Part shown: piece by piece, positions 11,923 to 29,900 of the stretch | Layout of the letters: each line of letters begins with the position of its first letter | Position numbering within the stretch: the stretch's first letter is position 1 | Assembly (NCBI RefSeq): GCF_033153115.1 | Contig: NW_026889752.1 | Location: 12,276,001-12,340,000, forward strand | Direction: 5' to 3' | DNA: 64,000 nt | DNA from: Saccostrea echinata | Lineage: Eukaryota | Made by a program: the position numbers and the translations under genes | Notes under the pieces: generated by a model | Told to the model about the DNA's origin: nothing | Seen by the model: the letters and a program-made list of their open reading frames with translations, nothing else | The model's database searches: none

Positions 11923-14900
11923 CTTGGAATTCAAAATAAAAACAAATAATTAAACTTTGAGGTAATTGGCTACAGTAAATTATCATGTATGTGCTTAGTA
12001 CAATCGGCAATATATTCGGACAAGAGCTTCTTTAAGAGAAATTTCCAGTAGATATATATCTTCATATTTATAATGTATGCTTCAAAATTTTTCTTCACAA
12101 ATCGATACACAAATAAATAAAAAAAATCTGTTTACTTTTAATACATGTGGTATATATATTAGTGCGTACCATTAGCACATACACTTCCAAAAAATCCAGC
12201 TGGACATTCACACCGGAAACCATTCACTAGATCATGACAGGTCGCCTGCAAGTTACATGGGGAACTTGAGCATTCGTCAACATCTGCGAAAAAAACAACT
12301 CTTAAATCTTTTAGAAAACTAACTAATTTTAAATGAAAACTCACTCTTTGTCAAAATTAACACCATTTTTGGTGATGTTTTATTGATACGCTGGTCTAAT
12401 AAGGCAGGAATAATAATAAGATATTGAAATGTGGTGTTGTTTTGTCATTGATAATTATAGCAATTTATATCTAAAAAAACTAACGCTTCAGATTTATTTA
12501 TCATAAATTATTTTTTATTTCCTCAGACCGGTCACCGTAGCCTAGTGGTAGAGAGCGTACTACGTGCTCGGGAGGTCCGGGTTCGATTCACGTTCGCCGC
12601 ATCGCGTCAAACCGACGTAAACATAAATAGTGACTGTTCCAACGCCAAGCACCCGGTACTATAGAAGTGAAAGTCACGGGTCTTTCGAATAAGACCTTAA
12701 GAAGGTCTTTCGAAAGGTCCCATGTCAGGGTAGGCGTTTGCACGATAAAGAACCCTCACTGCTTAATGGCCCTGAGTGCCGAGTATAGGTCTAAATTTGA
12801 AGCTCTTCATCGGCATACGGTGAAGTCTCTATAAATGAGTGAAAAAACTTTAATTAATCATGGTGAAAAAGAACCTCCATGTGATTTAGGTACAAACTTG
12901 TTAAATTCATTGCCATGGAAATATTGTATGGCTACATTAGAGGATCCACATTTCACAGAAGTATATTAAAAACATATGCCAGAAACATTCCTTTCTTCAA
13001 AAATAATGAATGAAAATCATGAATAATGAAATCTGACATAACTTTCAAAAAAAAAAAAAAAAAAAAAAAAAAAAAAATTCTTTTAAAAGTTTCAGTATTA
13101 AAAGAAAACTTAAAGTTACCTGTATAGCATATAAATTATTCATCAAATATTGTGAGTGCGATACTTATTATTAACTGGATGCAACTGTGAAAGACCACAC
13201 CCGATCCTAACGACTCACCAAGTTGGCAGAAATTTCCACTGAACCCTGCAGCACAGACACAGGTGAAACCATTCACAATATCCAGACATGTGGCATTATT
13301 TTGACATGGGAAACTGATACATTCGTCTATGTCTGTAAAAATTAAAGATGAACATTTTTCTAAATGTGGATGTAACATGCTCTCGGGGGAAGTACACTCA
13401 TGAACCGCATCTTTGTTTTCACACCGGTTTCACAGAGTGTGTTCCTAAATCTTTTGACTTCATCTTGATAATTGATTGCCTTGCAAACGTTTCTTTGAAC
13501 ACTTATTTAGAAACATATACCAGCTTATGTGAGAAATCTTCCATAAAATTCCTGTAGGTTTCGACATGATGTTCATGCTTTGAATATAACAAAGATATGT
13601 ATACCATTGGAACAAAGACTGCCATCATATCCAGGGGCACATTCACAGCTATATCCATTAACTAAGTCATGACAAGTCGCTTGATTTTGACAGGGTGAGC
13701 TGGAACACTCGTCGATATCTGAAAGCATGTGTTATTATAAAGATTGATTTCAACACTGGAAATTATAATTGAATTCAAATTAAACAAAAAGAAGAAAGAA
13801 GTTAAGCAAATTCAGAAGATTTTTCTTTACAAGTATTCCATATTTTTCACTAGCTTTCAAGTTAACTCACCAATTTGACAGAACACTCCGCTGAATCCTG
13901 CAGGACAACTACATGTAAAACCATTGACTTGGTCCTGACAAGTAGCGTTATTCTGGCAGGGGGCGCTCCTGCATTCATTAATATCTGTAAAATATAAAAG
14001 GTGATTTTTAAGTTGGATATCAAATGTTAGTTTGTGATACAGGAATTACTTACTGAGTAGTCGATAGAAAATTACATACGAAATACAAAGCTTGTTTTTT
14101 AAAAAGATCAGAAGAAAAATATCTCGTATTGAATGTTAAAAGTCCGTATTCTAACAATTTTAAATGAAAAAATCATAGTGACACAAATAGCCAAAAAAAT
14201 GTAAGTCACGTATTGTAGGCGCGGTGACATTTGCCGGATGTATCGGATGACATTTTTTCAAGTGTGAAAGGTTGCATTCGATCTTAATTGCCAAGTACTC
14301 ACCAAGTTGACAGAAATTTCCACTGAACCCTGCAGCACAGACACATGTGAAACCATTCACAGTATCCAAACATGTGGCATTATTTTGACATGGGGAGCTG
14401 ATACATTCGTCTATATGTGTTAAAATGAAAGAAATGGCGTTTTCTCAATATTGATGTAACATACTGTCTGGGCACACTTTTGAACCTGATGTTTGTTTTC
14501 ATACCGGTTTCACGGAGTGTTTGTTCCTAAATCTTTTTTTTTTCACTTTATCTTAATAACTGATTGCCCAGCATATGTTTGTTTGTTTGTTTGTTTGTTT
14601 GTTTGTTTTTTTTTTTTTTTACACTTTTATTAATAATATATACCAGCAGATACGGTTGTATATTTGTGAGAAACCTTCCATAGCATTCCCCTATGTTTAG
14701 TTATCATATTCATGCTTTGAATATAACAAAGATATATATACCATTGGAACAAAGTCTACCATCAAATCCAGGGGCACATTCACAGCTATATCCATTAACT
14801 AAGTTATGACAAGTCGCTTGATTTTGACAGGGTGAGATGGAACACTCGTCGATATCTGAAAGCAAGTGTTATTACAAAGATTGATTTCGACGTTACAAAT

Positions 14901-26900: not shown

Positions 26901-29900
26901 CATTTGTATGACAAATATTTGACGTATGCATGGGCCTACTATTCTGAAGTAAGCCTGGCTTATGTATGTTTCAAAATTACTTTACATTTTCAAATATTTT
27001 TCATAGATGAATATATCGAACAGCATATACATTTCTGTCTGAGTGAACTTATTAGAGAGTCAAAGGTCATAGTATGACCAAATCACAAGCCGCGAAAATA
27101 TCTTTTATTTTTGTCACCATGGAGCTGGTTTCGGAACTTCTAACTTTATAGCAGAAGCAAAGATGAAATATCTGAAACACGTACTTTTTTTTTCATTAGC
27201 AGATGCCCATTAAATAATTTTCAAATGATATTCCATGATAAGGTCATATTCTGGTGGTGCAGAGAAGTGCAAGCACAGAGTGCACTGTGATATTCCATGG
27301 AAACCTTAACGTATCTGCTTATTCGGAAGATATTCACTCTTAGAATATAACAAAGATATGTTTACCACTGGAACAAAGTCTGCCATCATATCCAGGGGCA
27401 CATTCACAGCTATATCCATTAACTAAGTCATGACAAGTCGCTTGATTTTGACAGGGTGAGCTGGAACACTCGTCGATGTCTAAAAGGAATTGTTGCATTT
27501 ATAAGGTTTACCTCAACAAAATGTACATGTTAAAATTGAATATGTATCATACATGAAAAAGGTTGGAAAGAAGAACAGATGAACAATAAATTCTCTTTTA
27601 AAAGACGGTATATCGTTCATTAAGATTTTAATCAACTCACCAATCTCACAAAACACTCCATTGAATCCTGCAGGACAACTACATGTAAAATCATTGACGT
27701 GGTCCCGACAAGTAGCGTTATTCCGACAGGGGGCGCTGCTGCATTCATTGATATCTGTGAAATTATAAATGATGACTTTGTAGTTGGATTTGAATGTTGG
27801 TTGTAAAACATGCTTGAGAAATCTATGTTTTTTTTTTCCTTTGATGAAAGTGAATAAGAACCAGTGAAAGAAATACGCATGTTAATAACTGTTCGTTCCT
27901 TTTTGACAGTGCCTTTTAGTAGACATTCCGTTAATATATGGAAAAATAACATGATCCGATTCAGAAGGTATTAAGATTATGTAAGAACTATGTGCCAAAC
28001 AGAATCAAATACATGTTCCTCAGACTCTACTCTCAGTTTCTTCCGAAAACTAGGAATTGAAGCTCAAGTATTGATCGATCAACAACGCACTTCTGCTTTA
28101 TAATAATAACTGAACTAAAAATTTAAAAGAAAAAAAGGAAGAATTATAACATTGATTTCTAATAAGGGGATTGCTTGGGAGGAGTAAAGCCAAATAGATA
28201 TTACATTTTCCCAACCTTCTAACGAAAGAGGAGAGTTGATGCAAAATATTACAAAAGCCAATGAAAGAATAAAATTTCCTCTCCAAATTCAAGTAGGATT
28301 TACTCACGTTCTCCTAAAGAATGGGAAAAAGAAATCTGGATACTCTATCAACCTTGTTTTATTAATATTGATGAATTATATCACAAGAATGTATTAAAAC
28401 ATTCAGTTTTCCAACAGCTTTCTATGAAAAATTGTAGAACCCTGATAAAAAAAATTAATTTCCCATCAAGTAATGTGAAGGCGGTAACATTTTCGGCATG
28501 CTTCCGATGATATCAACTGTGAAAGGTTACATCCGATCTCAATTACTCACCAAGTTGGCAGAAAGTTCCACTGAACCCTGCAGCACAGACACAAGTGAAA
28601 CTATTCACATTGTCCAAACATGTAGCATTACTTTGACATGGAAAACTGGAACACTCGTTTATGTCTGTTAAAATGAGAGAAAGAGCGTTAATTTTTTTTT
28701 TTTATAATATGTTGAATGTAGATATACCATGCTCTCTGGATGCAAATTGTGAATGAGGCATTGGTTGTTACATTATACCATTTTCACATAATTTGATTTT
28801 ATCTTGAAAATTGCATTACCTTGCCCAGTTTCCTAAACACGCATTGATTTACAGATACCAGTTGAAACAATTATATATTTTTGTGAGAAACCTTCAATAT
28901 AATTCCATATAATGTAAGTTAGGTTATCATATTTATGCTTTGAATATAACAAAGATATGTTTACCATTGGAACAAAGTCTGCCATCATATCCAGGGGCAC
29001 ATTCACAGCTATATCCATTAACTAAGTCATGACAAGTCGCTTGATTTTGACAGGGTGAGGTGGAACACTCGTCGATATCTAAAATGAAAAAAATTGTTTG
29101 ATAAAGATTGACAGAAATTAAATATTAAAATTGAAAGTATATGACATATTCAGAAAGGGTTGGAGAGATGTACCACAAATAGGCAGGAATTTCGTTTTTA
29201 GAATATAGAAAAACATTCATAGTTCAAAGTTAACTCACTAGTTTGACACAATATTCCGCTGAATCCTACAGGACAACTACATGTAAAATTATTGATGCGA
29301 TCCTGGCAAGTAGCGTTATTCTGGCAGGGGGCGCTGCTGCATTCATTAATATCTGCAAAATGTAAAAGTTGCCTTTTAGATAAGAGCTTAATATACGATA
29401 AAATGTTTCATTCTCATAAAAATGATAAGATCTTGACATTTTAAAGGCTTAGTTTCATAACAAGTCTATTTAAATTGGACATCCTTCAACTCATTTATTA
29501 GAACAATAATTCACTGACAACTCACAACAACATTCAATGATACTCACAAAAGGACCTTTAGGAATAATCATCGTTGCTTTGATTTCTGCCATGTATATTA
29601 ATCATATTTATGTGTTATTTGACGAAAATTGATTTCTCTGTTTAAGTCAAACTTAATCTAAGTCTGATGAATTTAAATTTACATTATAAACAAAATGATT
29701 ATTTATGTAAAATAAAAATGGATTAATAAAGTCTGAGAACGAGCATAATTTTGAAACGATGAACAAACTTAGTAATCGATAACTGTGACATTGAAAAGAC
29801 ACTGGATTACTTTTTTAAAAGAAAAGAGTTCTAGCTTATGAATTCTCGAGTTAAAAATTGCATTTAAAAATGTTAGTTTCAAGAAATTTTGTTTAAGAAT

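Follow-up and report, generated by a model that had tools for sequence, protein, structure and literature searches.

Silent-site uniformity of one EGF exon in three suggests short gene-conversion tracts within a tandem exon array of an oyster gene

Introduction

In the protocadherins, one domain of an adhesion protein is homogenized at silent sites whereas the other domains diverge (Noonan et al. 2004, as summarized in PMC3966226; for fugu, PMC1852091), and the summaries cited attribute this to conversion plus selection. Here we describe a comparable pattern within a single predicted cell-surface receptor gene of the oyster Saccostrea echinata, located in a stretch of 64,000 nucleotides (nt) of contig NW_026889752.1 (RefSeq assembly GCF_033153115.1, positions 12,276,001 to 12,340,000; hereafter the window, in which position 1 is the first letter). 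The gene contains a tandem array of EGF-like exons of three types, A, B and C, of which the B exons are nearly uniform. In the cited protocadherin accounts, the homogenized segments lie inside one long exon, in separate variable exons, and show raised G+C content at third codon positions (GC3). By contrast, the oyster array is contained within one gene, its homogenized segment is one intron-bounded exon of 114 nt per triplet, and its GC3 is not raised.

For yeast duplicates, conversion is described as persisting where selection keeps homology and ending where indels or transposable elements (TEs) break pairing (Fawcett and Innan 2011, PMC3924837). As presented there, the yeast case concerns whole coding regions of dispersed genes and would predict homogenization of the A exons also, unlike what is seen in the oyster array. 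Fungal ribosomal protein paralogues resemble exon B in that synonymous divergence (dS) is lower than intron divergence, but in the passages cited (PMC6993855) this applies to whole coding sequences, whereas the oyster pattern involves one exon class only and includes intronic tracts. Human LPA is, like the oyster array, an intragenic exon-intron repeat; according to the portion of PMC4378929 cited here, exon 1 of kringle IV type 3 (KIV-3) and exon 2 of KIV-1, both in unique flanking kringles, are identical to KIV-2 exons. There, KIV-2 is described as a block of almost identical units that varies in copy number, and identity is found at the edges of the array and not in one exon type of each diverged unit. 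The exon-intron repeats of SmPoMuc and spider silk are also intragenic repeats in concerted evolution, but they show the reverse of the exon B pattern, with introns more homogenized than exons in the text cited (PMC2576457). The initial annotation of the window compared the array to the repeats of abalone VERL. This likeness is loose: both are intragenic repeats in concerted evolution from which terminal repeats escape (VERL repeats 1 and 2, and B0 and B10 here), but the VERL repeats of ~153 amino acids (aa) adjoin without introns, as stated in the excerpt cited (PMC2704960), whereas the oyster repeats are 38-aa EGF exons separated by introns. The process is known, and the intragenic one-exon-in-three pattern is a variant of it, not a new kind of system; exact-phrase searching of an open-access library found no publication that deals with this gene or describes this pattern.

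Results

A six-frame scan identified 28 EGF-like exons of 114 nt each on the minus strand between positions 12170 and 30209, all in phase 1-1 and in the order B0-(C-B-A)x9-B10, with no A exon in unit 2 (Table 1). Exons B1 to B9 differ from their majority sequence at 1, 2, 2, 2, 2, 2, 2, 4 and 1 nt of 114, respectively. Their mean pairwise divergence (p) is 0.032 and their synonymous divergence (pS) is 0.059, compared to a pS of 0.249 among A exons and 0.268 among C exons; at 4-fold degenerate sites the values are 29/460 = 0.063 for B, 0.179 for A and 0.185 for C. The flanking introns have a mean p of 0.30 (C-B introns) and 0.24 (B-A introns, with the non-homologous unit 2 left out and the unit-4 insertion removed). 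The nine B exons are about 5-fold more alike at silent sites than the adjoining introns and the A and C exons.

Relative to the majority of the inner copies, B exons carry 7 synonymous changes when 34.8 are expected from the flanking introns (P ~1e-8); an expectation based on intron tree length gives the same picture (7 vs 39.6, and 6 vs 27.0). Protein-level selection alone fails to explain this deficit, as had been argued initially. The A and C exons, however, change at the intron rate (30 synonymous changes vs 28.2 expected, and 34 vs 34.9), and therefore it is one exon type in three that is homogenized, not exons in general as the initial annotation had proposed; equality of exon dS and intron divergence, named there as evidence against homogenization, is found for A and C but not for B. 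Within the inner units alone, B has 6 synonymous changes compared to 23 in A (P 0.002) and 23 in C (P 0.001). The ratio of nonsynonymous to synonymous changes in B (8/7) is not significantly higher than in inner A (9/23; P 0.11). The invariant core reported earlier, 37 nt in length, does occur exactly once in each of the nine B exons and 0 times by chance in 100 shuffles, but it is not clearly special within B, in which a run of at least 37 invariant nt has a P of 0.058 given 13 variable sites of 114. We therefore rejected the core as a separate line of evidence.

The history of the units makes the uniformity of exon B more pointed. Introns of units 3 to 9 are ~21% apart, and those of units 1 and 2 are ~40% from them (0.42-0.44 for the C-B introns). 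In the C-B intron tree, units 3 to 9 form a clade that excludes units 1 and 2 (bootstrap 100), and yet B1 and B2 have a pS of only 0.04 and 0.08 to inner B exons. Exon A1, by comparison, shows a divergence in keeping with this split (15 differences). Units 1 and 2 together hold 5 of the 19 B differences, compared to an intron share of 0.52 (P 0.02); a constant slow rate in B does not predict this pattern, since about half of the differences would then fall in these units. The C exons of these units, too, lie nearer to inner C exons than would be expected from the introns (24/79, P 8e-5, a result partly confounded by selection), and C1 and C2 have alleles in common with two different inner C groups. 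Homogenization thus concerns exon B specifically, and in these two 5' units C shows a weaker signal. It is recent, with B coalescence at a dS of ~0.08 compared to ~0.25 for inner introns; nonetheless all nine copies are distinct (0/36 identical pairs).

Both exons and introns contain patches of near-identical sequence that disagree with the unit tree. The sole shared B variant, AGA at codon 33, is present in B1 to B4 and in B8, across the deep split between units; the outer exons have AGT (B0) and TCA (B10) at this codon. The start of the B1-A1 intron is of the inner type, with 5/80 differences compared to 65/191 in the rest of this intron (Fisher 3e-7). Over the first 80 columns of this intron, units 1, 3, 4 and 8, which are the AGA units that have a B-A intron, are closer to one another than any other of the 70 four-unit sets; in the remaining columns they rank 69th of 70. 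A scan for shared runs (474 polymorphic columns, eight units, 28 pairs, unit 2 left out, 1000 permutations) identified one run common to units 3 and 4 and another common to units 4 and 5, both of a length reached in 0/1000 permutations.

As judged from its sequence, the host region is a minus-strand oyster gene with the domain order vWA-EGF-Ig-Ig-B0-(C-B-A)x9-B10 followed by a predicted transmembrane (TM) helix. Upstream of the array are the vWA exon, one EGF exon and two Ig exons; downstream, a Cys-rich/hydrophobic exon precedes a short tail. The EGF array plus tail is open throughout, with no internal stop. The vWA exon matches XP_061169151.1 (P0003) of S. echinata, an NCBI model of 492 aa ('notch homolog 2-like'; window 30007-34324) that ends by read-through into the intron after B0; therefore the full-length protein is probably ~1,600 aa long and carries 29 EGFs as well as a TM helix, the latter judged from sequence only. 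The order vWA, one EGF, Ig, Cys stalk and TM helix is that of an oyster vWA-EGF-Ig-TM family. Crassostrea virginica LOC111103779 and LOC111103027 (P0008, P0022) have vWA domains 58-72% identical and the same EGF, Ig, Cys stalk and TM motif, but are without the 28-exon calcium-binding-type EGF array of the S. echinata gene. Because these Crassostrea relatives share the vWA-EGF-Ig-stalk-TM layout, both ends of the array belong to one gene. We rejected the Notch label of the database entry: the gene has N-terminal vWA and Ig domains, its array leads straight into a 64-aa stalk/TM exon and then a tail of ~33 aa, and neither LNR nor intracellular ankyrin repeats are present. Another family member, P0010 from Ostrea edulis, has an internal duplication of EGF-Ig-Ig-stalk-TM and possibly represents two fused gene models. 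A gap of N (30290-30455) falls in the intron preceding B0.

All 28 EGF exons have a GT donor, and in 27/28 the acceptor at the aligned position is AG. Exon A8 (14303-14422) has AC at this place, with an in-frame AG 6 nt further downstream; use of this AG may cost two residues of the calcium-binding start, or A8 may instead be skipped in frame. In contigs from three sequencing runs of one study, aligned to 11400-30280 and guessed to be RNA although none is on record as such, the last two exons are joined in 2/3 runs, and A1 and C2 are joined in one run at a depth of 6.

The initial annotation also described independent TE insertions in the introns. Two insertions each occur in one unit, in the B4-A4 and A5-C6 introns (Table 1). 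An element in the A4-C5 and A6-C7 introns is at the same place in both, with 79% identity, and is therefore probably inherited, not independent. Copies of the reverse-transcriptase-like retroelement family are found at 1216-2624, 10213-10882, 18999-20453 and 34882-36256; the four are 67-80% identical, and the family is abundant in the contigs. The A-C introns contain an internal duplication of ~190 nt of which the copy number varies by unit (15268-15492, 16609-16828, 20454-20847, 24628-24818). In unit 2 (25936-27365), the B2-C3 intron is unrelated to the other B-A introns beyond ~30 nt.

Discussion

Gene conversion, which the initial annotation had put forward for the exons, is the best-fitting reading for exon B. 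We assign a probability of roughly two in three to the proposal that exon B was repeatedly recopied by non-allelic gene conversion at the DNA level, through short tracts (about 110-200 nt) between misaligned units. The C-B-A exon triplet was multiplied in tandem inside a vWA-EGF-Ig-Ig-TM gene, as the layout of the array displays, and recopying would then have produced the observed patches of near-identity that are discordant with the unit tree. As introns lost exchange homology through indels and insertions, tracts may have come to begin in, or to be confined to, homology anchored by exons. The least secure step is the last, in which B might be favored as a start site of exchange, or uniform converted B modules might have been selected. 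The outer exons B0 and B10, which are of the same domain type, have a pS of 0.70-0.82 to B. Their silent sites are saturated, and therefore those of B-type exons are free to change.

Several points weigh against conversion. The P-values given above assume that changes are independent of each other. When the share test is restricted to unit 1 and its B-A intron, the result (2/16) is not significant (P 0.20). The 80-nt boundary in the unit 1 intron was picked after inspection and, when unit 1 is left out, units 3, 4 and 8 are no tighter than other trios. Raised GC3 is a common, though not required, signature of conversion; GC3 in B (0.30-0.38) is not above that of A (0.30-0.35) or C (0.35-0.43) and is no higher than in B0 and B10. 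The excess of singletons in B is not significant (Tajima D -1.17), and no hotspot motif was identified. Protein conservation of inner A matches that of B (nonsynonymous divergence pN 0.028 vs 0.022), yet A is not homogenized, so that residual similarity alone does not explain the choice of B. Finally, orthologue searches found no orthologous array in which within-species clustering, the defining sign of concerted evolution, could be seen: a search with the TM exon gave 0/22 candidates, four of the five candidates from an extended exon B search were unrelated EGF-array proteins, a HMMER library search gave one match without an EGF array, metagenome scans gave 0 matches, and an Atlas search returned generic vWA/Ig clusters only, below 0.9.

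The choice of B might be related to what its domain does. An N-glycan sequon is present in 8/8 A and 9/9 C exons but in 0/11 B-type exons, and the O-GlcNAc-type motif C-x-x-G-x-S/T-G-x-x-C is present in 8/8 A and 6/9 C exons but in 0/11 B-type exons. With neither of these glycosylation motifs, B may form an exposed face at every third EGF and is a candidate binding module. It is a tentative and rather unlikely extension that B is a dedicated self-homogenizing recognition module, in which conversion would carry new variants through the whole set of nine copies, with selection favoring a uniform multivalent binding face. If so, the B exons would be species-specific and replaced together, A and C would evolve independently as spacers, and the gene would encode a VERL-like recognition receptor with neutral controls (A, C and introns) inside the same gene. 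This is an unusually well-controlled natural case, in that the three exon types have the same length and phase and were duplicated together, yet one alone stays uniform: given their shared origin, models based on a hotspot, on selection and on splicing constraint predict different outcomes.

Nucleotide-level purifying selection, through exonic splicing enhancers or another overlapping signal, could instead freeze B together with the U-rich start of the intron behind a weak donor. The donors of B are indeed non-consensus (GTATAT, GTAAAC, GTATGC, GTATAC, GTAAAT), whereas 14/17 donors of A and C are GTGAGT; the first ~25 intron nt after B are conserved, even in unit 2, and B variants are mostly singletons (14). 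But B0 and B10 also have weak donors and nevertheless are saturated at silent sites, the older units 1 and 2 are no more diverged at B, and B tolerates about 8 amino acid changes compared to 7 silent ones. The splicing constraint suggested by the initial annotation, although it accommodates the donors and the conserved intron start, is thus disfavored, and we consider it unlikely. RNA structure, antisense pairing and dual coding of B were rejected as such signals: the exons have no stable RNA fold (z-scores +0.3 to +1.6), B has no antisense partner in the window, and all five other frames of B9 contain stops. Rfam gave no match on B and one weak match (E 0.57) outside the exons.

Near-identity of B could also arise if simplification of a short-read assembly graph, or polishing, drew the B copies to a consensus. 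Gaps of 153 and 166 N in the window would be consistent with scaffolded short reads, and 16/36 B pairs have an identical run of at least 75 nt. However, the nine B copies are all distinct, with mid-exon variants private to single copies (positions 38, 47 and 51), and A and C exons are unaffected. Merging of bubbles requires long identical flanks, which are rare at the level of divergence of A (median run 33.5 nt), so that an artefact could sharpen but would hardly create the contrast between B and the other exons. We regard an origin by artefact as improbable.

Concerning the donor of conversion, work on fungal ribosomal protein paralogues takes dS below intron divergence as its criterion for a cDNA donor, as far as the cited portion of PMC6993855 indicates; taken alone, such a deficit is no evidence of an RNA donor. 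In the oyster gene, identity falls exactly at the acceptor of B in three units (1, 2 and 7), and the gene seems spliced in contigs of the runs guessed to be RNA, as a spliced-transcript template would have it. But A and C exons, although part of the same transcript, are not homogenized, the introns between EGF exons are retained in 27/27 cases, and 5' units are homogenized as much as 3' units. Moreover, common tracts enter introns, as over ~80 nt of B1-A1 where a tract crosses the exon-intron border of unit 1, or are wholly intronic, which largely refutes a spliced donor. Intronic tracts, absence of intron loss, sparing of A and C and lack of a 3' gradient together make conversion by spliced mRNA, or by cDNA made from it, very unlikely, contrary to the possibility raised initially; the donor was likely the DNA of a misaligned unit.

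Chance, or a locally low mutation rate in B, is hardly credible even with only ~22 synonymous sites per exon and with B chosen as the extreme of three classes, given that the deficit is significant after correction for three classes and holds at 4-fold sites, that three CpGs are intact in 9/9 copies, and that the base composition of B resembles that of A and C.

Table 1. Positions of exons, insertions and putative conversion tracts in the window
Feature	Position	Strand	Remarks
vWA exon	33793..34305	-	Pfam VWA 1.9e-41; 100% identity to XP_061169151.1
Single family-typical EGF exon, 117 nt	32688..32804	-
Ig exon 1 (limits approximate)	31226..31537	-	tblastn of P0003; Pfam Ig on P0003
Ig exon 2 (limits approximate)	30701..31015	-
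B0, outer B-like EGF exon	30096..30209	-	Not homogenized; pS 0.70 to B5
Exon B1	28965..29078	-	0 synonymous differences from inner majority; its C-B intron 41% different
Exon B2	27366..27479	-	A exon absent from unit 2
Exon B3	25553..25666	-
Exon B4	23993..24106	-
Exon B5	21464..21577	-
Exon B6	18397..18510	-
Exon B7	15974..16087	-
Exon B8	14742..14855	-
Exon B9	13605..13718	-
Nine C exons, 114 nt each, span	13871..29352	-
C exons, low ends	29239, 27641, 25822, 24267, 21731, 18664, 16267, 15007, 13871	-
Eight A exons, 114 nt each, span	13219..28664	-
A exons, low ends	28551, 25162, 22463, 21092, 18007, 15585, 14303, 13219	-
B10, outer B-like EGF exon	12170..12283	-	Not homogenized; pS 0.82 to B5
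Cys-rich stalk and predicted TM exon	11730..11922	-	43% identity to tail of C. virginica P0004
Last coding exon, encoding a short cytoplasmic tail and the stop (lower limit approximate)	11493..11595	-
Inner-type start of B1-A1 intron, first ~80-88 nt (lower limit approximate)	28877..28964	-	Probable intronic end of a conversion tract
Intron-only tract common to units 4 and 3 (~25462-25523)	23900..23963	-	28 consecutive polymorphic sites identical; limits approximate
C4 end and C-B intron tract common to units 4 and 5 (~21625-21750)	24160..24286	-	73 consecutive polymorphic sites; limits approximate
Insertion of 1129 nt in B4-A4 intron, like a long terminal repeat	22710..23838	.	TG..CA ends, CTTG direct repeat; repetitive in contigs
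Reverse-transcriptase-like retroelement remnant in A5-C6 intron	18999..20453	-	80% identical to 1216-2624

Other features of the window

A gene at 3640-7870 on the plus strand encodes three stretches of C1q domain (Pfam C1q 9.9e-27), which for the most part lie within a single long exon. Two tandem multi-exon genes at ~38560-43850 and ~47600-56000, also on the plus strand, resemble cytochrome P450 paralogues by eye, including a motif that is heme-binding-like. A family of short interspersed elements (SINE-like), with a start that looks tRNA-like, is represented at 12527-12846, 41915-42044, 49216-49336 and 54771-55069. A satellite-like tandem array at 57333-58270 consists of 6.4 copies of a ~146-nt unit.

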